Source: a virus. Taken from it: 37,595 nt of DNA. The DNA lies in the UHGV virus genome UHGV-0051534. One strand, given 5' to 3'. Shown piece after piece: positions 3,766 through 36,432 of this stretch. Both the position numbers and the translations under genes were made by a program. Within the stretch, counting starts at the first letter, position 1. Every line of letters begins with the position of its first letter. The notes beneath the pieces were generated by a model. It was not told where the DNA came from. It was given only the letters and a program-made list of their open reading frames with translations, and ran no database searches.

Positions 3766-4350
3766 TTATTTTTTGTTTTTTTCGTTCTGGTTGATGACAA
3801 ATTCAATGTAACTTTCGATCTTTGCTTTCTCGGTTTCGGGTAACAATGCGTAGCGCGAGCGATCATAGTTGATGGTCGCAGGGTCGTGCGGGTGAATCAG
3901 TAATTCATAGCCGTGACGCCCGAATGCGGATGCAACATTCTCCAGGGTGGAAATGGAAACGCTGACCTCATTGTTTAACAGGCGGCTGATTGTCACCTGG
4001 GCTACGCCGGATGCGCGGTGAAGTTTTCCCTGTGTTGAAAGGTCGCGGCTTTCGCTCATCCAGCGTTCCAGGTTGTGAGCCGCCAGCTGGCCAATGTCGC
4101 TTGGGCCGACAGGCTGAAAACCTTCCTGAGAAAGCGAGCGATCGATATCAAGCCAGTTACGGGGTTTATTGGCGGCAGCTTCAATTTTTCGTGCAACCTG
4201 GTCGCCGATAACCTTCTTGCCAAGAGCCCAGCGGTTTACCAGATTTGCCTGAGTTCCAAGTTTTTCAGCCATCCGCGTCTGAACACCATTGAATTCACGG
4301 TCGATCAAGTCGTTGAGATTTTGCCTGCGGACGTCCTGGATACTTTTCAT
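3766..4350 (-). CDS. immunity repressor (CI-like) with two HTH motifs and no S24 autocleavage domain
   Basis: 194 aa; HTH-like segments QTRMAEKLGTQANLVNRWALGKK and ASGVAQVTISRLLNNEVSVSISTLENVASAF; divergent from the Cro-like gene across an operator-rich gap; no peptidase-like C-terminal domain visible. Confidence 0.7.
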   Translation of the reverse strand: MKSIQDVRRQNLNDLIDREFNGVQTRMAEKLGTQANLVNRWALGKKVIGDQVARKIEAAANKPRNWLDIDRSLSQEGFQPVGPSDIGQLAAHNLERWMSESRDLSTQGKLHRASGVAQVTISRLLNNEVSVSISTLENVASAFGRHGYELLIHPHDPATINYDRSRYALLPETEKAKIESYIEFVINQNEKNKK

Positions 4351-4405
4351 TTTCTGGAAAATCGCCTCATATATGAATCAGTAGATGATTCAATTTAAAG
4401 CAATA

Positions 4406-4479
4406 TTACCCAACAGGTAAATGCACCCCACAGGTAACTATCCTTGATTTTTGTTACCTTATGGGTGAATATTTATTAT
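4406..4479. promoter_or_regulatory. tripartite operator region with candidate rightward promoter
   Basis: TTACC-CAACA-GGTAA (4406-4420), GCACC-CCACA-GGTAA (4423-4437), TTACC-TTATG-GGTGA (4454-4468); candidate promoter TTGTTA (4451-4456) -17 bp- TATTAT (4474-4479) overlaps the third site. Confidence 0.55.
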
Positions 4480-4504
4480 CTGAAATAAATATCAGGCAAT
4501 AGCT

Positions 4505-4735
4505 ATGAGCGATAACGGACATTTCGATTTCAAAAAGCACTGGCTTGCACTTACTCCGGATGAGCGTGAAGCCTTCGCACAGGAAGCCGGAACGACGAGT
4601 CACTATATCCAGACTCACTTAACAGGTAAGCGCAAAATGCCAGGTAAGGTATTGATGAATGGGCTTTTTAAAGCCTGTAAAACAAGACAATGGCTGCGCT
4701 CAAAAGCAGAATTGGCATACTTCTTCTACTCATGA
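4505..4735 (+). CDS. Cro-like HTH regulator
   Basis: 76 aa; LTPDEREAFAQEAGTTSHYIQTHLTGKRK is HTH-like; first rightward gene opposite the repressor. Confidence 0.6.
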   Translation: MSDNGHFDFKKHWLALTPDEREAFAQEAGTTSHYIQTHLTGKRKMPGKVLMNGLFKACKTRQWLRSKAELAYFFYS

Positions 4736-9631: not shown

Positions 9632-9981
9632 TGGACTATTCACAGTTAAGTGATTTTGAAATTAACAGAATGGTAGGAGACATAATTTTTAAAGGCCTTT
9701 GGGCGTGTAAACCGGAAACATCAGGGAATAACACCAACAAATGGTATTACGGAAATACTGATACAACTTTTGAGCCATTAAACCCTTTACCTGACTACTG
9801 CAATAATCCATCGGATGCATGGCCTATTATTGTTGATAATAAAATCAGTCTAACCTGCCACCAATCTCGCGGTGAGTGGTCAGCTGTTTTTAATGCCGAG
9901 AACATTTGCTTTCATGCGAATAATCCACTCCGAGCCGCCATGATTGTATTTCTCATGATGCAGGAAAATCAGAATGGCTAA
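9628..9981 (+). CDS. hypothetical protein
   Basis: 117 aa; ATGA overlap with upstream ORF; no recognised motif. Confidence 0.45.
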   Translation: MMDYSQLSDFEINRMVGDIIFKGLWACKPETSGNNTNKWYYGNTDTTFEPLNPLPDYCNNPSDAWPIIVDNKISLTCHQSRGEWSAVFNAENICFHANNPLRAAMIVFLMMQENQNG

Positions 9982-10312
9982 ATCAGCATCAGAGCGCAAA
10001 GCCGCTCAGAGAGCCAGACAAGCTGCATCTGGTGTGCGTAAGCTGGAAATTGTGCTTGATGCTCAGGAAATTGAAATGCTGGAGCGTAACTGTGCCACGC
10101 GTCGCCCCGGGCGTGCGCCTTACGAATTTGGGGAGTATATAGCGTTACTGATCCGCCAGGATGATGCACGCGTGCGCGGGCGTATAAAATCGATTAGCAG
10201 AAAACGTTGCGGTAAGTGCGGCGAGAAAGTTCCCGTTAATTCATGCCCGTGTAATGGTGACTCGCAATGCTGGGTGACTAAAGGCTGGCATGAAACTAAA
10301 TTAATAGTGTGA
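9974..10312 (+). CDS. putative DNA-binding protein with C-terminal Cys cluster; candidate late-gene regulator
   Basis: 112 aa; basic N-terminus (ERKAAQRARQAASGVRKLEIVLDAQEIEMLE) plus CGKCGEKVPVNSCPCNGDSQC; last gene before the terminator-guarded late operon; stop codon lies inside the 12-bp palindrome. Confidence 0.45.
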   Translation: MAKSASERKAAQRARQAASGVRKLEIVLDAQEIEMLERNCATRRPGRAPYEFGEYIALLIRQDDARVRGRIKSISRKRCGKCGEKVPVNSCPCNGDSQCWVTKGWHETKLIV

Positions 10313-10320
10313 CATGTCAC
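10309..10320. repeat. perfect 12-bp palindrome GTGACATGTCAC, copy 1
   Basis: Read directly; overlaps the TGA stop of the upstream gene; identical copy at 30539-30550. Confidence 0.8.
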
Positions 10321-19173: not shown

Positions 19174-19778
19174 TGGCCTCTGTAGTAGAGATCTGCAATC
19201 GTGCGTTGTCCAATATTGGCAACAGCCGCAGCATTAACAGCCTGACGGAAGCCAGCAAGGAAGCGGGGGAATGTTCGCTGCACTTTGAGGCCTGCCGTGA
19301 TGCTGTTCTTTCTGATTTTGACTGGAACTTTGCTACCAAACGCGTGGCGCTTGCAGATACGAGCAATCCACCGCCTGACTGGGAATACGCGTACCAGTAC
19401 CCGTCAGATTGTCTGCGCATTACTGAAATTATGCTTCCTGGTGTACGCAATCCAACAGCAGCAATGCGCGTTCAGTACGAAGTTGGTGCAGACACCAACG
19501 GAACAGGAAAGTTGATCTACACAGACCAGCCTCAGGCATGGCTCAAGTATGTCTCTCGCGTTACAGATGTGAACATGTTTGATGCCATTTTTATGGAGGC
19601 GTTGGCCTGGCGTCTTGCGGCAGCCATTAACATGGCGCTGACTGGGAATGCAGACCTCGGTACGTTTGCCCTCAATATGTACAATCGCGTGATTCTTAGT
19701 GCTGGCTCGCATAGCCAGAATGAATCACAGGAACCACAGCCACCGGTTGACGAGTTTACCATTGCGAGGTTGTCCTGA
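19173..19778 (+). CDS. tail tubular protein A / adaptor (T7 gp11-like)
   Basis: 201 aa; N-terminus VVEICNRALSNIGNSRSINSL parallels T7 gp11 AVNDILASIGEPPVSTL (recalled); followed by a gp12-sized gene. Confidence 0.5.
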   Translation: MASVVEICNRALSNIGNSRSINSLTEASKEAGECSLHFEACRDAVLSDFDWNFATKRVALADTSNPPPDWEYAYQYPSDCLRITEIMLPGVRNPTAAMRVQYEVGADTNGTGKLIYTDQPQAWLKYVSRVTDVNMFDAIFMEALAWRLAAAINMALTGNADLGTFALNMYNRVILSAGSHSQNESQEPQPPVDEFTIARLS

Positions 19779-27575: not shown

Positions 27576-30050
27576 ATGAGACAGGAATGTATACAAGCGG
27601 TCCAGCAGGCGGCGCAGCGCACGTTAACGGCGCGAGAAATACAGAACATTGAAGACCGCATTTATCGAAATATGCGCTCCATTGCTCGTGATGACCCGAT
27701 GTCGTGGCGACAACTTTCCGAATCAGAACGGTTGTATCGTGCAGCACAATTGGCATCTGAAGAATTACAGCGAGAAGCGGCATTAAAGAAACGTCGTGTG
27801 GCCCTCACTATAGCCGCACGTCAGAGATTGGATAAATTTATCAATAGCTATCAAGGGGCTGATGGGAAACTTGGCGCTCTTAACCGTACTATTGCTTTTA
27901 ATGCAGACGGTAAATCGAATTTCCTCTCTGTTGAATCCAGAACAAAAGCCACTCGTGATTATGCATTGAGTCAATTGCAGGAGGCATTTGAAGCAGTTGA
28001 TCCTCGCTTTTTTGGCCTGTTTGAAGATGAAGCGGGCGTGCGTGACCTGGTATATGAAATGCGAGGGCAAAATACTGGCAATGCTAAAGCAAGAAAAGGT
28101 GCTAAGGCGTGGAGAGAAGTGACAGATCTACTGCGCCGCCGGTTTAATGATGCTGGTGGGGACATTGGCTATCTCGAAAACTGGGGGATCCCTCAACATC
28201 ATTCTATGGAAAAGGTTGGGGCGGTATCAAAAGATAAATGGGTTAGCGATGTTATAGGTAAGCTGGATCGCAAATATTATACCCGAGCCGATGGACAACT
28301 GATGAACGATGCCGAGTTGTCTGCATTTCTTGGAGAGGCTTATAACACGATCGCTACTGGTGGGCTGAATAAGCTTACTGATACCGGAATGCGAATTTCC
28401 GGCGTACGTGCTAACCGTGGTAATGCATCACGACAGATACATTTCAAAGATGCAGATTCCTATCTGCAATATCAGCAACTTTATGGCGATCGCTCTCTAT
28501 GGGAAATCATGGTCGGTCACCTGGAAGGTATCAGTAAAGATATTGCGCTGGTGGAAACATATGGCCCAAACCCCGATCATGTTTTCCGCTCTCTTCTTGA
28601 TCAGGTTAAGGCAGAAACGGCAACAGCTAACCCGAGTAAAACCGGTAGCGTCGAGCGTCTGGCGAACAAAACAGAGAACTTGTACAACTTTATTTCCGGA
28701 AAAACACAGCCTGTAGCGAATCCGCACATCGCGCGATGGTCTGACAATATCCGCAACTGGCTGGTTGCCAGCAGACTCGGATCCGCGTTGCTGTCATCGT
28801 TCTCTGATCTTGGAACCATGTATCTGTCTGCGAAGGTTACCAACCTTCCAATGAACCAGCTATTTCGCAACCAGCTTGAAGCTATGGACCCAACGAACCG
28901 TACTGAGCTTGCGCGGGCGCGCCGCGCTGGCCTGGCGATGGAATCTCTACTTGGCAGCGTTAACCGCTGGGCGATGGATAATATGGGGCCGTCTGTGTCT
29001 CGTTGGGCGGCAACGGCGGTAATGCGTGCCAGTGGGCTTACAGCATGGTCAGATGCGCACAAGCGCGCCTATGGCGTAACCATGATGGGAAGCCTGGGAG
29101 AAGTAGTGTCACGGACACCAGACCTTCGTAGCCTCGATGACTCTGATTTTCGTATCCTGAAAAGTAAAGGGATTACTGACACAGACTGGAGCGTATGGAA
29201 GCTGGCGCAACAGGAGGACTGGGGGAACGGTAATAATACGATGCTGACACCGGAAAGCATTATGCGTATCCCTGATTCAGCAGTTAAACATCTTGGTGAG
29301 CCTGAACGCGTGAAATTTGAGGCAATGCGTAAACTGCTCGGTGCCGTAACTGAAGAAGTTGATATGGCTGTTATTACACCGGGAGCACGTGAGCAACTGA
29401 TAACCGGTTCTGGTATTCAGCGTGGAACATGGAAAGGTGAATTAACGAGAAGTGTTTTCCTGTTTAAATCGTTCCCTATCTCGGTTGTTATGCGTCACTG
29501 GTCACGCGCTATGGGTATGCCGTCTGCTGGTGGGCGTGCGGCATATATTGCGACGTTTATTGCCAGTACGACCATTCTTGGCGCTTTGTCGCAGCAACTT
29601 AACGACCTTGCGTCTGGTCGTAATCCTCGAGAGATGACAGGAGAAGATGCCGCAAAATTCTGGCTTGGTGCTCTACTGAAAGGTGGTGGTCTTGGCCTTT
29701 ACGGTGACTTTTTATTGTCAGATCACACTAGGTACGGAAGCGGCGCGCTGGCGTCGATGCTTGGCCCGGTAGCTGGTCTGGTTGATGACGTAGTGAAGAT
29801 TGCTCAGGGCATACCGTTAAATGCTGTGGAAGGGAAGAGTGAGCAGACTGGTGGTGATCTGGTGAAGCTGGGGAAAGGTTTGATGCCTGGTGCGAATCTC
29901 TGGTACTTGAAGGCGGCTCTCGATCACATGATCTTTAACCAGATGCAGGAGTATTTTTCACCAGGCTATTTGCGTAAAATGGAGCAACGTTCGAAGAAAG
30001 AGTTTAACCAGACATACTGGTGGCGACCTCAGGATGTCACTCCGCAATAA
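27576..30050 (+). CDS. large internal virion / ejection protein (gp16-like)
   Basis: 824 aa; last large gene of the ejection-protein block. Confidence 0.5.
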   Translation: MRQECIQAVQQAAQRTLTAREIQNIEDRIYRNMRSIARDDPMSWRQLSESERLYRAAQLASEELQREAALKKRRVALTIAARQRLDKFINSYQGADGKLGALNRTIAFNADGKSNFLSVESRTKATRDYALSQLQEAFEAVDPRFFGLFEDEAGVRDLVYEMRGQNTGNAKARKGAKAWREVTDLLRRRFNDAGGDIGYLENWGIPQHHSMEKVGAVSKDKWVSDVIGKLDRKYYTRADGQLMNDAELSAFLGEAYNTIATGGLNKLTDTGMRISGVRANRGNASRQIHFKDADSYLQYQQLYGDRSLWEIMVGHLEGISKDIALVETYGPNPDHVFRSLLDQVKAETATANPSKTGSVERLANKTENLYNFISGKTQPVANPHIARWSDNIRNWLVASRLGSALLSSFSDLGTMYLSAKVTNLPMNQLFRNQLEAMDPTNRTELARARRAGLAMESLLGSVNRWAMDNMGPSVSRWAATAVMRASGLTAWSDAHKRAYGVTMMGSLGEVVSRTPDLRSLDDSDFRILKSKGITDTDWSVWKLAQQEDWGNGNNTMLTPESIMRIPDSAVKHLGEPERVKFEAMRKLLGAVTEEVDMAVITPGAREQLITGSGIQRGTWKGELTRSVFLFKSFPISVVMRHWSRAMGMPSAGGRAAYIATFIASTTILGALSQQLNDLASGRNPREMTGEDAAKFWLGALLKGGGLGLYGDFLLSDHTRYGSGALASMLGPVAGLVDDVVKIAQGIPLNAVEGKSEQTGGDLVKLGKGLMPGANLWYLKAALDHMIFNQMQEYFSPGYLRKMEQRSKKEFNQTYWWRPQDVTPQ

Positions 30051-30059
30051 GGAAGTGTT

Positions 30060-30233
30060 GTGTTTTTAATTATTTTGAGTGTGATAATTTCTGGTGGATT
30101 GTTATTTATTGACCGCTACAAATATTTTCTTAACCCTCAGACTCAAGCTATTTGCTGGTTCATCTTTGTTGTGCAGGGAGTAGTTCTTGTTGCAAGCCTT
30201 ATTGAGGGGAGGCCTCTTATTTTTACTGGGTAA
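30060..30233 (+). CDS. small hydrophobic protein (58 aa, putative membrane protein)
   Basis: GTG 30060 with AGGAAG RBS 5 nt upstream; translates VFLIILSVIISGGLLFIDRYKYFLNPQTQAICWFIFVVQGVVLVASLIEGRPLIFTG (two hydrophobic segments); AT-rich; below track threshold. Confidence 0.3.
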   Translation: MFLIILSVIISGGLLFIDRYKYFLNPQTQAICWFIFVVQGVVLVASLIEGRPLIFTG

Positions 30234-30245
30234 ATAGGTGACTAC

Positions 30246-30542
30246 ATGCAAGCTATAGGATTCATTGTTTATATCGTCGTTGGTCTTTTTCAGTTGGCAG
30301 CAATTATGGCTGGGCTTGAATCATGGTGGGGATTGCACTGGATAATTGCAGCCCCCATTGCTTTCATCGTGAGCTATATTCCATTTGTTGGAGCGATTGT
30401 TGGTATGGTTGGCGCTGTGGATGTATGGCGGTGGGAGTGGTGGCAGGCTGGCCTTCTCTTCTTTGGTGGGATCATCTTTGCTATTGTCTGCGGTGGAATG
30501 TCATCATTTTTCGAATGGCTATCATTCAGAAAAAGAGCGTGA
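30246..30542 (+). CDS. small integral membrane protein (98 aa)
   Basis: AGGTGA RBS; three to four hydrophobic segments, Trp-rich; stop codon lies inside palindrome copy 2. Confidence 0.5.
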   Translation: MQAIGFIVYIVVGLFQLAAIMAGLESWWGLHWIIAAPIAFIVSYIPFVGAIVGMVGAVDVWRWEWWQAGLLFFGGIIFAIVCGGMSSFFEWLSFRKRA

Positions 30543-30550
30543 CATGTCAC
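30539..30550. repeat. perfect 12-bp palindrome GTGACATGTCAC, copy 2
   Basis: Identical to 10309-10320; overlaps an upstream TGA stop in the same register and is directly followed by a terminator. Confidence 0.8.
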
Positions 30551-30576
30551 AGGCCGCTTTCGCGGCCTTGTTTTTA
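30551..30576 (+). terminator. rho-independent terminator
   Basis: Hairpin AGGCCGC-TTTC-GCGGCCT followed by TGTTTTT. Confidence 0.6.
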
Positions 30577-30735
30577 ACGAATGCCACCGCCGCCCGGGCG
30601 GGAATCCGCAGAACGCCCACCGCAGCGGGAGCCGTCAGCAGCAGTATCGCTGTCGTGCTGACAGCGACCGGCAAAGGCCTGAGTTGAAGCTACCAGAGAC
30701 AACAAAACGAACAGTGCAGCAAATGCTTTTTTCAT
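30574..30735 (-). CDS. small secreted peptide (53 aa) with Sec-type signal peptide
   Basis: ATG 30735; MKKAFAALFVLLSLVASTQA-FAG has n-region, hydrophobic core and AxA-like cleavage site; mature part about 32 aa with two Cys; plausible promoter TTGACG -17- TATAGA upstream. Confidence 0.4.
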   Translation of the reverse strand: MKKAFAALFVLLSLVASTQAFAGRCQHDSDTAADGSRCGGRSADSRPGGGGIR

Positions 30736-30805
30736 TGTGAAATTTCCATCTATAAGCCACCTCAATGTGGCGTCAATGAGTGTAGCACTGACTTTTGTTT
30801 CGTCC

Positions 30806-30829
30806 ACAAAAAAGCCCGCGCTGCGGGCT
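30806..30829 (-). terminator. rho-independent terminator after moron 2
   Basis: Minus-strand hairpin AGCCCGC-AGC-GCGGGCT followed by TTTTTT. Confidence 0.6.
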
Positions 30830-31353
30830 TACCAAAACTTGTACCACGGGGATTTATCCTTCAATGGACAATCCTTCCATCGTGTGGCCAACCATTCATA
30901 TTCTTTAAAATATGTGTTTATGTTTTCTTTTTCTCTAATAGCTTGTATAAGAGGTAGCGCAATCTGATAGTTATTTACAACGGAGCTGTAAAATACTTCC
31001 TTAATCATGGTCTCATCATAAGTTTTCCGCTTCACGCTCACAGCCATGCGTTCGTAGAAACCTAGACAGTAAATTATTTCTCTCTTCTCTATCTTTTCTT
31101 CATCCGTAAGATCAGCCTGCCCATTGCTTGGATACATATAAGAGCGGAATGATTTGTTCGACTCGTGAATGCGGCGCATAGTAGATAGGCCTTTCTTATA
31201 ATCTACATCAAACCTGCTTTCACCAAGGAATACTGAAGTGTGTACTTTTCTCGCTGTATTTACATTATAAATAATAGTAGCGATAGCTATGAACAAGCCA
31301 AGCGAAACCGCGACTGCACTTACGATTTGAGCCACAGCCATGGCAAATTGCAT
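30829..31353 (-). CDS. moron 2: N-terminally membrane-anchored protein of unknown function
   Basis: 174 aa from ATG 31353 (GTG 31368 possible); N-terminal TM helix AMAVAQIVSAVAVSLGLFIAIATIIY then soluble domain; about 37% GC; opposite strand to structural genes. Confidence 0.5.
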   Translation of the reverse strand: MQFAMAVAQIVSAVAVSLGLFIAIATIIYNVNTARKVHTSVFLGESRFDVDYKKGLSTMRRIHESNKSFRSYMYPSNGQADLTDEEKIEKREIIYCLGFYERMAVSVKRKTYDETMIKEVFYSSVVNNYQIALPLIQAIREKENINTYFKEYEWLATRWKDCPLKDKSPWYKFW

Positions 31354-31385
31354 TTCTTCACTTAACACAAACTGTCTCCAGACAT

Positions 31386-31409
31386 GAAAACGGGGCCTGA
31401 TGGCCCCGT
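31386..31409 (-). terminator. candidate terminator/attenuator upstream of moron 2
   Basis: Minus-strand hairpin ACGGGGCC-ATCA-GGCCCCGT followed by TTTT. Confidence 0.4.
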
Positions 31410-31497
31410 CATTAAACTATCCGAATGTTAAACGCCTTCGTACTCGTCAAATTTTCTCATGTGGGCTCCTCCTGTATCGGTGCCTAATCGCTATGGA

Positions 31498-31512
31498 TCA
31501 CCCGTAAGGTAA
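31498..31512. promoter_or_regulatory. operator-like inverted repeat TCACC-CGTAA-GGTAA
   Basis: 5-5-5 motif between the antirepressor and moron 2. Confidence 0.35.
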
Positions 31513-31583
31513 TAGTACTCTATTCACCCCCCGGTCTGCAATCGTACAGGATTATTTAAAGGCACATCCCTGTGCCGCCGCCG

Positions 31584-32279
31584 TCAGAAGAACCCTGCCT
31601 TGTCGTTGATGTACTCCGCGTGCGTCTGGATATCACGCAGGCATTTGCTCACACCAACGATGTAACAGAACATGGTGGTCAGCTCCGCCGCCGCGCCCGA
31701 TACATCGTGCCCGTCTTCCTGCAACTGGTTTAGCAGATTCATCAGCAGTGAGTTCTCCGTCAGGCCGAGAACACCTGACGGCGAATGAATCAGACTGCGG
31801 TAGCCGGGCTTCAGTGGGGCGCTGTAGGTTTTGTTCTCTATCTTCATTGCTTGCATTACTGCTGACGCCGTGGCGTTGGCTACCTGGTCGGCAACCATCT
31901 TTATGCGTTCTTCCTGCGGGAGCGAGTTTTTAATGTAACTTCCGGTGCGGCGGATCTGAGGAAGAACCTCACCTGTAACCCATTTACGAAAGCGGTAGGG
32001 GATAGTGCCTGGTGTCACCGCATCGCGGCAGCGGAGGATCAGTGTGTAGAGGCCTGACTCGGAGATGATGATCGATTCTTGCTCACCGCCAGGGGTGTCG
32101 GTTGAAGCGACGCCCTTCTCATCATCATCAAGTTTTCGAACAGCATCTCGATGGTTTGCTATGCCTATAGCCCGACAAACATCTGAAGCGATAAACCATG
32201 GCTCACCATTAATGACGATTACTCGTATATCGGCTTGGGATTCGAAAGAAAAAATGGACGTGCTTTTTGTAGCTGTCAT
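31584..32279 (-). CDS. ant: antirepressor, Bro-N domain family
   Basis: 231 aa; N-terminal FSFESQADIRVIVINGEPWFIASDVCRAIGIANHRDAVRKL is a Bro-N/Ant-like motif; C-terminal domain is paralogous to the upstream small protein. Confidence 0.75.
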   Translation of the reverse strand: MTATKSTSIFSFESQADIRVIVINGEPWFIASDVCRAIGIANHRDAVRKLDDDEKGVASTDTPGGEQESIIISESGLYTLILRCRDAVTPGTIPYRFRKWVTGEVLPQIRRTGSYIKNSLPQEERIKMVADQVANATASAVMQAMKIENKTYSAPLKPGYRSLIHSPSGVLGLTENSLLMNLLNQLQEDGHDVSGAAAELTTMFCYIVGVSKCLRDIQTHAEYINDKAGFF

Positions 32280-32435
32280 AGTGGTTACCTTTTAGTCTGG
32301 TTAATCACCACTACCGACGCCAATCGGTTGGTGGTGAACTGTGCAGGGTTGGCGTAACCGGCTAAAAGGACCCGGCGCACCTTTCGGTGCCCCCACACAG
32401 CCCACCATAATACGAATGTGGCCGTGCTATACGCA

Positions 32436-32456
32436 TAAAAAAACCGCTTGCGCGGT
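32436..32456 (-). terminator. intrinsic terminator/attenuator in the antirepressor leader
   Basis: Minus-strand hairpin ACCGC-GCAA-GCGGT followed by TTTTTTT. Confidence 0.45.
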
Positions 32457-32548
32457 GAATGCGCCTTTTAGTAATCCGGGACGCCAATCCCGGCACTGGA
32501 TTTTGCCAGTGCCTGATTACTATGGCACAAGAGGAGTGCGATGTAAAT

Positions 32549-32563
32549 TTACCGCAAAGGTAA
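32549..32563. promoter_or_regulatory. operator-like inverted repeat TTACC-GCAAA-GGTAA
   Basis: Exact motif in the 316-bp leader upstream of the antirepressor. Confidence 0.4.
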
Positions 32564-32594
32564 ATATAAGCACTCCGCTTGGTAATTGCAAACC

Positions 32595-32852
32595 TTATCT
32601 GGTTTGCTTTCGTAATTGTTCGGCACAATAGTCGAGATGTGTTTGCAGATCCTGCATAGACATCTGTGAGCTGGTGACGTAGTTAATCAGTGCAGTCAGT
32701 TCGGCAAGTGGGCCATCGACATTAAATCCATCCTTATCGAGATCCCGGAGTAATTTCATCAAGTGCGATCCCTCCACCAGTGATCTGACGCCTCCCGGCG
32801 TGTGAATCCTTTCGGTAAATCCGTCTTCCAGTGGATAGTGATACTGCTGCAT
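32595..32852 (-). CDS. small protein paralogous to the antirepressor C-terminal domain; candidate SOS-induced antirepressor
   Basis: 85 aa from ATG 32852 with GGAG RBS; YPLEDGFTERIHTPGGVRSLVEGSHLMKLLRDLDKDGFNVDGPLAELT aligns by eye with Ant APLKPGYRSLIHSPSGVLGLTENSLLMNLLNQLQEDGHDVSGAAAELT; LexA box just upstream. Confidence 0.55.
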   Translation of the reverse strand: MQQYHYPLEDGFTERIHTPGGVRSLVEGSHLMKLLRDLDKDGFNVDGPLAELTALINYVTSSQMSMQDLQTHLDYCAEQLRKQTR

Positions 32853-32871
32853 CTTATCTTCTCCATGCAAT

Positions 32872-33047: not shown

Positions 33048-35237
33048 ATGACGGTCTCAACCGAAGTTGACCACAACGAATACACTGGTAACGGAGCTAC
33101 GACATCATTTCCGTATACCTTCCGTATTTTCAAAAAAACCGACCTGGTTGTTCAGGTGTCTGACCTGAACGGGAACGTAACAGAATTGGTTCTGGATACC
33201 GGTTATAAGGTAACTGGAGCGGGCACTTATAGTGGCGGTGAAGTGGTTCTCCCGTCGCCGCTTGCTGCTGGCTGGCGAATTACGATAGAGCGTGTGCTTG
33301 ATGTGGTGCAGGAGACTGATCTTCGCAATCAGGGAAAATTTTTCCCCGAAGTTCATGAAGATGCATTTGACTACCTGACGATGCTGATCCAGCGATGTTT
33401 TGGGTGGTTCAGACGTGCATTGATGAAACCATCTTTGCTTGCAAAATATTACGATGCAAAGCAAAACAAAATTTCTAACCTTGCAGATCCATCATTTGAG
33501 CAGGACGCTGTAAATAATCGCTCAATGCGTAATTATGTCGATGCTGCAATCGCCGGGGTTGTTGGTGGTTTTGGTTGGTTTATACCGTCAGGAAGCGGGG
33601 CAAGACAACGAACATTTCAAAGCAAAATGAGGGATATAATTTCTCCTTGTGATTACGAAGATAATATTTTTATGATTAAGGAGTTGATATCCAAAGGCAA
33701 AAATGCCGCTGTTTTTAACTCATATTATACTTTTGTTATTACTGTTGGCGAATGGGGTGATTACCCTACACTCAAAGATGCAATCATTGCAGCCCAGTCA
33801 ATGAGACCTATGTGGGATGGTGGTAATGCTTTCTGCGAAATAAGAATTAAGACCGGGCATATTATCAACTATCAAATTGAATTCAGTTCAGGTGTTGATT
33901 TGTCTTGGATTAAAATAACATCAGAAGACTCAGTGGTTTTCTCTGACACTCGTTTGTTTACTAAAATCGTTAGAACGTATTACGAATACAAGTATTTATT
34001 TTACATTTGCGATGCAGCAAAAAGTCCTGTATTTGCTATTCAGATCGAAGAAAATAGAGATGATAGCGATGTTTGTGCATTTATTGTAACTCAAAAAGCT
34101 GAACTTAATTTCTATCCGTATTCAGGTGCTCGAAAGTTCTACGTTGGAATTCATGGTAGTTTTGGTGCAAAAATTAGTGCATATCATACCGGATGTGCTC
34201 CTGATGAGGAAAGTGTTGCTGCATATATGCCAGAAGGGTATTACGTATGTGATTTTTCTTATAGCAGATACTCTTCCCTGCAACTGGTAAATAATGTCAA
34301 GGCATCAATGCCTGTAAGCAAGTTTGAACGGTGCACAGAGAGTACGGTTGCGTCAGTTAATTGTATTTATAATGTTAAAGCAGATTTTCAGGGGTCAAGT
34401 GCAAGCTATTGTTATATAGGATGGAATGTAAGAGATGGTTCAAATGTTAATATACGCGACCATAAAACTATACATTGCTCATATCGTGGATTAACCTGCA
34501 TTCATACAGCATATGTTGATGCAAGACGACATGACGTTGAAGAAAGTGATGCAGAAACAAGTGGTAAAGTCCTTGAACCAAATATTGAAAAAGGTTTTTA
34601 TGGATGTGCACTTGGTGTGCGTATTGATGGTGCGGGTTGCGTTGATGTTGCTGGTAATGATATGCGCAATTGTGGAACAGCCGTTAATGCAGACACTGGT
34701 GCTGTTATTTCAGGAAAGGCTGTAGATATCTCAGGGGCTGAGCTGGGATTTGATTGCCATGCAGGAGCATCTGTTAATTTTCCAAGGCTATGGGGTACAG
34801 ATATAAAAAAATTAATGCACCTCCAAGATGGTGTAAGGTTTAACTCTAATATTTGTCATGTATTTGGTGCAAATCCCACAAAAGATATTAGATGGATTGA
34901 TGTAGAGAGATCTGAAGCTTCTTTTATGAATGCAACGCTGGATGCAGATTCAGGATTTATTGCCGACTGTGGTAGTAGGATAACCATTGAAGGAAGTAAA
35001 GTTAAAAACCAAACAATAAGAAGTTTTTTTGGATCATATGTGGCTATAAATAATACTGTTGCTGACAGAACTTATTCAGATATAGCCGATGTTCCGCAGT
35101 TGACTATTAGTGGAGGATCTTTTATTTCTGCTACAGGATATTCTAATTCTGACTCCAGCCCTCTGAGGTTGAGCACAACACGAAATACACTTGGCGTTGG
35201 AGGAGCCATATTTTCAACCAATGGGGAAGTTTCATGA
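33048..35237 (+). CDS. tailspike / tail fibre protein with low-GC receptor-binding part
   Basis: 729 aa; GGAG RBS; N-terminus MTVSTEVDHNEYTGNGATTSFPYTFRIFKKTDLVVQV typical of podovirus tailspike particle-binding domains; GC falls to about 38% after about 33600; C-terminal part Gly/Ser/Asn/Cys-rich as in beta-helix depolymerase domains. Confidence 0.75.
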   Translation: MTVSTEVDHNEYTGNGATTSFPYTFRIFKKTDLVVQVSDLNGNVTELVLDTGYKVTGAGTYSGGEVVLPSPLAAGWRITIERVLDVVQETDLRNQGKFFPEVHEDAFDYLTMLIQRCFGWFRRALMKPSLLAKYYDAKQNKISNLADPSFEQDAVNNRSMRNYVDAAIAGVVGGFGWFIPSGSGARQRTFQSKMRDIISPCDYEDNIFMIKELISKGKNAAVFNSYYTFVITVGEWGDYPTLKDAIIAAQSMRPMWDGGNAFCEIRIKTGHIINYQIEFSSGVDLSWIKITSEDSVVFSDTRLFTKIVRTYYEYKYLFYICDAAKSPVFAIQIEENRDDSDVCAFIVTQKAELNFYPYSGARKFYVGIHGSFGAKISAYHTGCAPDEESVAAYMPEGYYVCDFSYSRYSSLQLVNNVKASMPVSKFERCTESTVASVNCIYNVKADFQGSSASYCYIGWNVRDGSNVNIRDHKTIHCSYRGLTCIHTAYVDARRHDVEESDAETSGKVLEPNIEKGFYGCALGVRIDGAGCVDVAGNDMRNCGTAVNADTGAVISGKAVDISGAELGFDCHAGASVNFPRLWGTDIKKLMHLQDGVRFNSNICHVFGANPTKDIRWIDVERSEASFMNATLDADSGFIADCGSRITIEGSKVKNQTIRSFFGSYVAINNTVADRTYSDIADVPQLTISGGSFISATGYSNSDSSPLRLSTTRNTLGVGGAIFSTNGEVS

Positions 35238-35530: not shown

Positions 35531-35732
35531 CTGCTACCGCGCCATTAAATGGTGCGGTATTCAACCTGCTCTTCACTGTTTGTTTCTTCAGAGTCATGTA
35601 AAAGGTGAGCTTTATTCTCGGCATGAAAAACAGGGAATTGACGATGTTAAAGTAACAAAAAACCATAAATGGTTTATTATGCGTAATGCTTTACTGTTCA
35701 GGAGGTTGTTATGCATATAAACGGTGGAAAAC

Positions 35733-36137
35733 ATGTCAGCTCAACTAACCAGTGAAACTTTAAATCAGTGGCTTAGCATGAGTTCTCTGGCGGCGGTGAT
35801 AGCAGGAGTTCCTCCTGAGGTTGCTTTGGGTGCTTTGGCTGGAGCGGTAATTTTTGTTACCTCTGCAGTAGAGTACCCCATCCGTCGCCGGGTGCTCCTG
35901 TCGATGCTCAGCTTTCTTTGCGGCCTTCTCTTTTACAAACCAGCAGCATCAATTCTTATCGGCATAGCCAGCCTGATCCCTACCATCACGCAGGACTCTT
36001 TTGAAAAAGGGATTGTTTTCTCTGCAGGCGCATTCGTGTCAGCAATTGTCGCTGTGCGTATTGGTATATGGCTCTATCACCGTTCCGATAATCCACGCGA
36101 GTTAATTCCGGGGAGAAAAGACGATGGTAACGCATGA
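35733..36137 (+). CDS. putative holin / multi-TM lysis membrane protein
   Basis: 135 aa from ATG 35733; three to four hydrophobic helices and charged C-terminus; immediately upstream of holin-like and endolysin genes. Confidence 0.45.
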   Translation: MSAQLTSETLNQWLSMSSLAAVIAGVPPEVALGALAGAVIFVTSAVEYPIRRRVLLSMLSFLCGLLFYKPAASILIGIASLIPTITQDSFEKGIVFSAGAFVSAIVAVRIGIWLYHRSDNPRELIPGRKDDGNA

Positions 36138-36432
36138 GTTTTTTTTGCTTATCACCAATGCAGTTATTTGCACTGGCATAGCAATTCGCGTTGTCACATT
36201 CCGGCGTAACGGCTCTCAACACCGAAGGTGGGGAGGATGGCTTGCTTATTTCCTGATTGTTGCTGCGGCCAGTATTCCTGTTCGTGTCGCCTATGCAATC
36301 TGGTTACGTACGCCAATGGCTGTGGATTTATCTGAGGTCATTATCAACGCTGTCATGCTGGCTGCGGTTATTAAAACGCGCGGTAACGTCGTTCAAATTT
36401 TTAAAGTATCGAGGTCTAAACATGGAGATTAA
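36124..36432 (+). CDS. putative holin (two TM)
   Basis: 102 aa with GGAGAAAAG RBS; two hydrophobic helices and basic C-terminus; overlaps the endolysin start. Confidence 0.5.

Follow-up and report, generated by a model that had tools for sequence, protein, structure and literature searches.

Positions 30060 to 30542 of the viral genome UHGV-0051534, analyzed as one stretch of 37,595 nucleotides (nt; hereafter the window), contain two short open reading frames (ORFs), ORF1 and ORF2, that are genuine conserved genes for small membrane proteins under purifying selection. Both genes are separately mobile accessory cargo in a hypervariable slot of the late operon, an assignment that is much firmer than the role we attach to it. 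According to our tentative reading, which we put at somewhat below an even chance, the two genes would represent exchangeable inner-membrane cargo that most likely excludes superinfecting phages; the exclusion role is the weakest step of this reading and is offered as a plausible, preferred guess.

The window represents the near-complete genome of a temperate podophage of the epsilon15/phiV10 type (genus Uetakevirus), an E. coli prophage. Its region 29900-30900 is 98.6-99% identical to the Escherichia phages HEMP4, Phi05_2388 B and phiv142-3, and the flanks of this region resemble phiV10 as well as Salmonella SPN1S-type phages. The slot and its borders comprise the following features:

27576..30050, plus strand: gp17-like gene encoding an 824-amino-acid (aa) virion/ejection protein of the type of T7 gp16 (IVP-D, short for internal virion protein D); phrog_684 'virion structural protein', E = 0
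30049..30055, plus strand: Shine-Dalgarno-like AAGGAAG for ORF1, read from the sequence; ends 4-5 nt upstream of the GTG
30060..30233, plus strand: ORF1, 57-aa membrane protein, a predicted two-helix hairpin, GTG start
30236..30241, plus strand: Shine-Dalgarno-like AGGTGA for ORF2, read from the sequence
30246..30542, plus strand: ORF2, 98-aa membrane protein with three predicted transmembrane (TM) helices, ATG start
30539-30550: 12-bp palindrome GTGACATGTCAC, overlapping the TGA stop codon of ORF2 (30540-30542); conserved right border of the slot
30551..30575, plus strand: intrinsic terminator closing the late operon, made up of a 7-bp GC stem with a TTTC loop, followed by a T-run

The slot is bordered on its left by the last structural gene of the late operon, the 824-aa gene ending in TAA, which is a homolog of PhiV10p20 and epsilon15 gp17 and whose product is 98.5% identical to PhiV10p20 over its C-terminal 199 aa. 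The first-pass annotation, made from the letters of this stretch, had placed the two ORFs after the last ejection-protein gene. This wording is fair, since Hardies et al. (PMC4819975) identified the T7 equivalent of epsilon15 gp17 as gp16, internal virion protein D, and the gp17-like gene of this type lies directly upstream. The GTG of ORF1 follows the TAA of the 824-aa gene at a distance of 10 nt, and the ATG of ORF2 follows the stop codon of ORF1 at 12 nt. The GTG start at 30060 with its AGGAAG ribosome binding site, present as part of the listed AAGGAAG, and the 98-aa ORF2 starting from ATG 30246 agree with that annotation, while the length of ORF1, given there as 58 aa, has to be corrected to 57.

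Conservation of both reading frames was surveyed in 81 related viral contigs, ORF1 being present in 68 of these loci and ORF2 in all 81. Loss of the frames in relatives had been named beforehand as the observation that would speak against the two genes, and it was clearly not observed: 67 of the 68 ORF1 loci keep all 57 codons (26 distinct nucleotide versions) and the 98 codons of ORF2 are intact in 77 of 81 (46 distinct versions). The gap between the two genes is kept at 12-13 nt in 67 of 68 loci. The ratio of nonsynonymous to synonymous substitution rates (dN/dS) is 0.17-0.27 for ORF1, with an excess of synonymous changes (Fisher p 1e-3 to 2e-5), and 0.01-0.14 for ORF2 when compared with diverged copies for which dS is near saturation (Fisher p 1e-10 to 7e-27). 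ORF2 is thus as constrained as the C-terminus of gp17. Among 5426 complete E. coli genomes, 205 (about 4%) carry at least 80% of the ORF1-ORF2 cassette, and the cassette was also found in Klebsiella, Salmonella, Cronobacter and Yersinia.

The start codon of ORF1 is GTG in 46 of the 68 loci and TTG in the other 22, while ATG does not occur. At the equivalent upstream position, purine-rich variants of the Shine-Dalgarno sequence (AAGGAAG, GGGGAGGGGAG, AAGGGGGA) are found in these loci. That the start is never ATG although the upstream sequence varies suggests that selection favors weak or coupled initiation, the membrane protein being possibly toxic. ORF1 has 13 cluster-level homologs of 56-58 aa with 67-98% identity in E. 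coli, Citrobacter, Klebsiella, Salmonella and Enterobacter, most of which had prior NCBI calls, and a diverged 54-aa member was recognized by hhalign with 92% probability. For ORF2, 52 cluster-level homologs of about 95-100 aa, down to 44% identity, were found in Klebsiella, Dickeya, Cronobacter, Kosakonia, Yersinia and Salmonella; it also matches phrog_3075 over its full length (E = 2.2e-54; residues 1-97 versus profile positions 1-97 of 98).

Both genes are already known as such. NCBI PGAP annotates them as hypothetical proteins in RefSeq E. coli (WP_248422619.1 for ORF1, WP_001147905.1 for ORF2), and ORF1 and ORF2 are identical or nearly identical to such RefSeq proteins of E. coli prophages. 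These entries and phrog_3075 come with no function, Pfam or NCBIfam model, or literature. ORF1 lacks a PHROG and had no match in the Pfam, PHROG, NCBIfam or PADLOC libraries, and ORF2 belongs to no Pfam, NCBIfam or PADLOC family apart from a sub-threshold Pfam holin match considered below. Neither a significant fold neighbor in PDB or BFVD nor a sequence relative in PDB was detected, an Rfam search returned a noise-level match only, and a literature search covering the accessions, the PHROG, DUF6804 and Uetakevirus superinfection exclusion found no publication on either gene. The expectation that standard callers would miss ORF1 is only partly right, because RefSeq does annotate it and PGAP does so in five enteric genera, while the GenBank records of the three phages phiv142-3, BUCT711 and YDC107_2 omit or mis-call it. 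In phiv142-3, the gene Orf12 (L001, 3288-3644) is called with 118 aa from an upstream start overlapping ORF1, which is itself unannotated there. The YDC107_2 record (L003, 1783-1917) carries compensating -1/+1 homopolymer indels in ORF1, but was rejected as evidence against coding; gp17 is split into several ORFs in the same record, so the indels are probably sequencing errors. The 3' end of ORF1 also contains a terminator-like hairpin (TGAGGGGAGGCCTCTTA followed by a T-run) at 30203-30219, which was dismissed as a terminator and is probably fortuitous, as it is not kept in the sequence of the Klebsiella phage BUCT711.

Both proteins had been described as almost entirely hydrophobic helices, and their composition bears this out. 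The grand average of hydropathy is 1.31 for ORF1 and 1.22 for ORF2, and the residues AVLIMFWCG account for 68% and 79% of the two proteins, respectively. AlphaFold models built from the family alignments predict a helical hairpin for ORF1 (H2-20, H26-49; pLDDT, the predicted local distance difference test score, 76) and three helical segments of membrane length for ORF2 (H2-28, H32-42/46-59 kinked at the invariant Pro46, H65-97; pLDDT 91). A Trp-rich loop of ORF2, D58-Q67 (WxWxWWQA; VDVWRWEWWQ), has a net charge of -1, while its basic C-tail, RKR, has a net charge of +2. According to the positive-inside rule this tail would be cytoplasmic, which would place the Trp-rich loop in the periplasm and the N-terminus outside, a predicted N-out/C-in topology. 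Invariant residues of ORF2 include G13, Q16, A19, G29, P46, G53, G56, A57, W63 and A68. The stretch is AT-rich, as had been noted, with a GC content of 36.8% in ORF1 and 46.1% in ORF2 versus 48.8% in the window, and ORF1 looks foreign in composition. The ORF1-ORF2 region is markedly T-rich, which is explained in part by hydrophobic codon usage.

Comparison with relatives revealed at least six alternative contents between the conserved 3' end of gp17 and the conserved palindrome-terminator. In phiV10 and the 65FD/SPN1S-type phages, the slot holds an unrelated 46-55-aa protein with two TM helices, and in epsilon15 it holds gp18, a 64-aa protein with two TM helices whose gene overlaps gp17 by 4 nt. 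ORF2 alone is found in Cronobacter prophages, where it starts 1 nt after an 849-aa gene, and in a Salmonella prophage with a T7-like terminase, where it follows an 833-aa gene. In Salmonella Muenchen and C. freundii prophages, a gene for a 126-128-aa lipoprotein takes the place of ORF2 behind ORF1, while on other contigs ORF2 is preceded by 102- or 123-aa signal-peptide proteins, a 103-aa protein with two TM helices (phrog_21905) or a diverged ORF1. Every one of these alternative contents is a membrane protein, a secreted protein or a lipoprotein, and the PHROG matches obtained for them were all of 'unknown function'. The lipoprotein of the Muenchen and C. freundii prophages (L012, 5418-5804; L014, 5279-5659) has the lipobox LVGC and belongs to phrog_3716, and the cassette it forms with ORF1 ends at a one-mismatch copy of GTGACATGTCAC.

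The slot genes do not follow the type of gp17 next to them. The gp17 C-termini in front of ORF2 copies with 94-100% identity share 100%, 91% or only 29% identity, and the idea that ORF2 co-evolves with this C-terminus was rejected on the grounds that identical ORF2 occurs with gp17 types sharing 29% identity. Conversely, ORF1, ORF2 or both are missing from phages whose gp17 C-termini are 95-98% identical. Swapping of the slot regardless of gp17 type points to exchangeable cargo rather than a dedicated partner of the ejection protein. Genes for virion or ejection proteins would be expected to be conserved with the other internal virion genes across the genus; this was not observed for either ORF, as both are absent from phiV10, 65FD, SPN1S and epsilon15, which retain gp15-gp17 homologs. 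The earlier suggestion of an ejection accessory protein is therefore disfavored by the unrelated slot genes found next to 98% identical gp17 C-termini and by the relatives of ORF2 outside phages described below.

PhiV10p21 (46 aa) and epsilon15 gp18 (64 aa) occupy the same position ahead of the same palindrome and terminator and share with ORF1 the layout of two hydrophobic helices and a short basic loop. Homology of ORF1 to either protein was rejected (hhalign probability 0.4-0.5%); they belong to other PHROGs (7892 and 29212), and their phages lack ORF2.

The first-pass annotation had ORF2 ending inside the 12-bp palindrome and followed by a strong terminator, which agrees with the coordinates listed above. 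The terminator hairpin, AGGCCGC-TTTC-GCGGCCT, spans 30551-30568 and is followed by the T-run; a folding energy of -17.8 kcal/mol (z = -2.7) was computed for the 51-nt terminator region. The hairpin carries a terminator annotation in phiV10 and epsilon15 and aligns across relatives, and thus represents the conserved terminator of the late operon without belonging to the insert. No intervening terminator was found between the late operon and ORF1/ORF2. The window contains two exact copies of GTGACATGTCAC (10309-10320 and 30539-30550) versus 0.12 expected. Both overlap a TGA stop codon, with a terminator hairpin following 1 nt downstream of the 30539 copy and about 40 nt downstream of the 10309 copy. 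The late operon is bracketed by the two copies, since the one at 10309 closes a phrog_536 'transcriptional regulator' gene (9974..10312) located immediately ahead of the terminase genes. Conservation of the palindrome extends to epsilon15, phiV10, 65FD, BUCT711 and Cronobacter prophages. In phiV10 (L113), with copies at 2262, at 19493 and across the record ends, its locations include one after the terminase terminator, adjoining a minus-strand insert. The palindrome may act as a regulator site or mark a boundary at which modules join or recombine.

When 1.84 billion cluster representatives were searched with a profile, 749 members of the ORF2 family were retrieved at E <= 1e-3, 320 of them at E <= 1e-10, reaching the Alphaproteobacteria (Microvirga, Ensifer, Mesorhizobium, Caulobacteraceae) and the Chloroflexi (a metagenome-assembled genome, MAG, of Thermoflexus). 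Outside enteric phages, the ORF2-like gene forms a unit of its own, followed by genes for the small membrane proteins DUF805 and/or DUF6804, and these DUF-linked relatives lie on chromosomes or on elements bearing an integrase or resolvase. Such recurrent clusters, a conserved module of small membrane proteins, were located as follows:

L114, 5001-6024: ORF2-like gene with DUF805/DUF6804 genes
L115, 5001-5681: ORF2-like gene with DUF805/DUF6804 genes
L099, L101 and L103, around 4000-4650: ORF2-like genes with DUF805/DUF6804 genes

Three longer proteins are fusions of an ORF2-like domain to DUF805. In a metagenomic prophage, a relative of ORF2 stands beside an integrase gene and is ATGA-coupled to a gene for a secreted protein; in a Yersinia prophage, a minus-strand gene for a secreted protein lies between ORF2 and the IVP-D gene; and in one MAG (L106) a distant relative is convergent to an 861-aa gp17-like gene. 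In the enteric genomes, every ORF2 match examined lay within the late operon or an accessory island of a podophage. None of the family members carried a Pfam domain or an informative name, and the source names in a collection of 5.8 billion proteins were all 'hypothetical protein' except for one evidently spurious 'MntP'. ORF2 is thus a member of a large unnamed family with three TM helices that is not phage-specific and is typically paired with a second small membrane protein.

As to function, the first-pass annotation had named exclusion or conversion factors, which is possible, and exclusion is the role that we prefer. In the proposed mechanism, ORF1 and ORF2 would be made late on the virion-operon transcript, each from its own Shine-Dalgarno sequence, and both proteins would insert in the inner membrane, with the cell envelope and not the virion as their site of action. 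ORF1 would form a hairpin with its basic loop inside, while ORF2 would expose its Trp-rich loop at the periplasmic face and pack its helices via small-residue (Gly/Ala) motifs; the two may form a hetero-oligomer. The membrane would be altered such that DNA delivery by superinfecting phages fails, functionally like P22 SieA or T4 Imm without being homologous to them. Exclusion appears the most likely role because the slot always holds envelope-targeted proteins and shows the rapid turnover typical of arms-race genes. Classic exclusion effectors are lipoproteins and small membrane proteins. In addition, P22 sieA adjoins the last ejection gene, in an accessory region that is equivalent and likewise precedes the tailspike gene: sieA and immI of P22 lie between ejection gene 16 and tailspike gene 9. 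P22 SieA, which resides in the inner membrane and has three TM helices, blocks the function or the conduit of the ejection proteins (PMC10883804). SieA thus resembles ORF2 as a small protein with three TM helices encoded next to the last ejection gene, in a region with an antirepressor gene ahead of the tailspike gene, but it is larger (162-164 aa) and is encoded by a gene that runs convergent to gene 16 and is provided with an annotated promoter of its own. Homology of ORF2 to SieA was rejected, since the family profile reached an hhalign probability of only 0.3% over 7 aligned columns.

Several observations weigh against an exclusion role. Neither protein is tied to exclusion by homology, as the hhalign comparison with SieA reached only 0.3% and PADLOC gave no match, and both ORFs, unlike P22 sieA, share the orientation of the late operon and are closely packed within it. 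Neither standard nor lenient consensus scans detected a conserved promoter upstream of ORF1 or ORF2, and no sigma-70-like site of at least 9/12 was present there by consensus scan alone, which leaves expression in the lysogen unsupported; the weak extended -10 sequence TGTGATAAT at 30080-30088 lies inside ORF1 and is not conserved. A small membrane or secreted protein occupies the slot of every relative examined, and in epsilon15 and Cronobacter the slot gene is translationally coupled to the IVP-D gene. This constant occupancy and coupling could reflect a lytic-cycle role tied to the IVP-D gene, while the spread of the ORF2 family on chromosomes suggests a general membrane function that is not anti-phage.

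The latter alternative, in which ORF2 and perhaps ORF1 would be membrane-homeostasis or stress proteins carried on mobile elements as host-fitness cargo unrelated to phage defense, appears rather unlikely while still deserving weight. It is consistent with the large size of the family (749 representatives, 320 at E <= 1e-10) and its reach into Alphaproteobacteria and Chloroflexi, the recurrent DUF805/DUF6804 neighborhoods and fusions in non-phage contexts, the very strong purifying selection on ORF2 and the presence of the cassette in about 4% of complete E. coli genomes. However, no promoter was found that would allow expression from the repressed prophage, the enteric matches examined are confined to podophage late operons or accessory islands, and no family member has a known function. 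A non-essential lytic-cycle helper of the IVP-D/gp17-type protein, which would protect the inner membrane of the producing cell as an immunity protein or chaperone or aid loading, is in our judgment unlikely. Such a helper would fit the position of slot genes directly after the IVP-D-type gene in at least three diverged lineages (gaps of 10, 1 and 35 nt, as well as the 4-nt overlap of epsilon15 gp18), the distant relative convergent to the 861-aa gp17-like gene, co-transcription with the late operon with no promoter of their own detected, and the fact that some small membrane or secreted protein always occupies the slot. It is difficult to reconcile with the non-homologous slot contents of phages whose gp17 C-termini are 95-98% identical, with identical ORF2 next to gp17 types of 29% identity, with the relatives on chromosomes or beside integrases that have no IVP-D gene nearby, and with the Yersinia prophage, in which a minus-strand gene splits ORF2 from the IVP-D gene.

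A lysis-related function, with ORF2 as an extra holin, antiholin or lysis-timing modulator expressed late and ORF1 as its partner, is the least probable explanation. Class I holins such as lambda S105 share with ORF2 a size of about 100 aa, three TM helices, the predicted N-out/C-in topology, a basic C-terminus and late expression; the helices of ORF2 are Gly-rich, both ORFs are placed in the late operon, and a sub-threshold match to the Pfam family Phage_holin_5_2 (PF16079) was obtained (E = 0.027; 15.2 bits versus a cut-off of 29.2). On the other hand, profile similarity to these holins is missing (hhalign probability of 1.4% against lambda S), fold matches to holins were at noise level and the charged C-tail of ORF2 is very short. 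The window has a complete lysis cassette with two holin genes elsewhere (holin-family genes at 35724-36432, then endolysin and spanins), canonical holins are present in every related prophage examined, and among these relatives ORF2 never adjoins an endolysin gene; its chromosomal relatives pair with DUF805 or DUF6804 and not with lysis genes. A holin role of ORF2 is unlikely because this phage and its relatives have canonical cassettes elsewhere and ORF2 is never found beside the endolysin gene.

Within the exclusion reading, a more far-reaching version can be envisaged, which we consider distinctly unlikely to hold in full. Here, the ORF2 family with its changing partners (ORF1 in enteric podophages, DUF805 and DUF6804 elsewhere) would constitute a widespread inner-membrane module that stops phage DNA entry at its membrane step. 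In podophages, it would be retained beside the channel-forming IVP-D gene as 'immunity' against such ejection channels, and the module would represent a new exclusion family convergent with P22 SieA.

The arrangement also recalls the lambdoid morons (such as HK97 gp15), extra genes that are inserted in late operons and often encode envelope proteins. Like these, ORF1 and ORF2 lie as insertions between conserved late genes, vary in their presence among close relatives, deviate in GC content in the case of ORF1 and are followed by a terminator. They are likewise replaced among otherwise nearly identical phages while the flanks are conserved. Classic morons, however, bring their own promoter, whereas none was found for ORF1 or ORF2, and the terminator is that of the operon.

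As it stands, the observation of these two genes is correct but ordinary, as they are hypothetical membrane-protein genes with prior RefSeq annotation; small envelope-protein cargo in late operons is of a well-known kind, and ORF2 was already in PHROGs. The present analysis adds the slot with its conserved palindrome-terminator border; it also shows that the two genes are independent and that the ORF2 family is broad and linked to DUF805/DUF6804. If either protein is an exclusion factor, it would represent a compact and very common inner-membrane anti-phage gene and provide a first functional handle on the large unnamed membrane family and its DUF805/DUF6804 partners. The slot itself, as a natural 'cassette holder' consisting of the gp17 3' end, variable envelope genes and the palindrome with the terminator, could guide searches for phage cargo.

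Downstream of the late operon, the window continues with a minus-strand accessory island convergent to the operon and located between the IVP-D gene and the tailspike gene, followed by the tailspike gene and the lysis cassette:

30574-32870, minus strand: accessory island
within 30574-32870, minus strand: gene for a Gly/Arg/Cys-rich signal-peptide-bearing peptide of 53-77 aa, phrog_3117/14503 'membrane associated protein'
30829..31368, minus strand: DUF4760 gene
31584..32279, minus strand: Bro-N antirepressor gene
32595..32870, minus strand: phrog_450 gene
33048..35237: tailspike gene, downstream of the accessory island
35724-36432: two holin-family genes (phrog_198 and phrog_217), start of the lysis cassette, with endolysin and spanin genes following as in relatives

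At the position of the accessory island, relatives of the phage have HicAB or YafO-type toxin genes.

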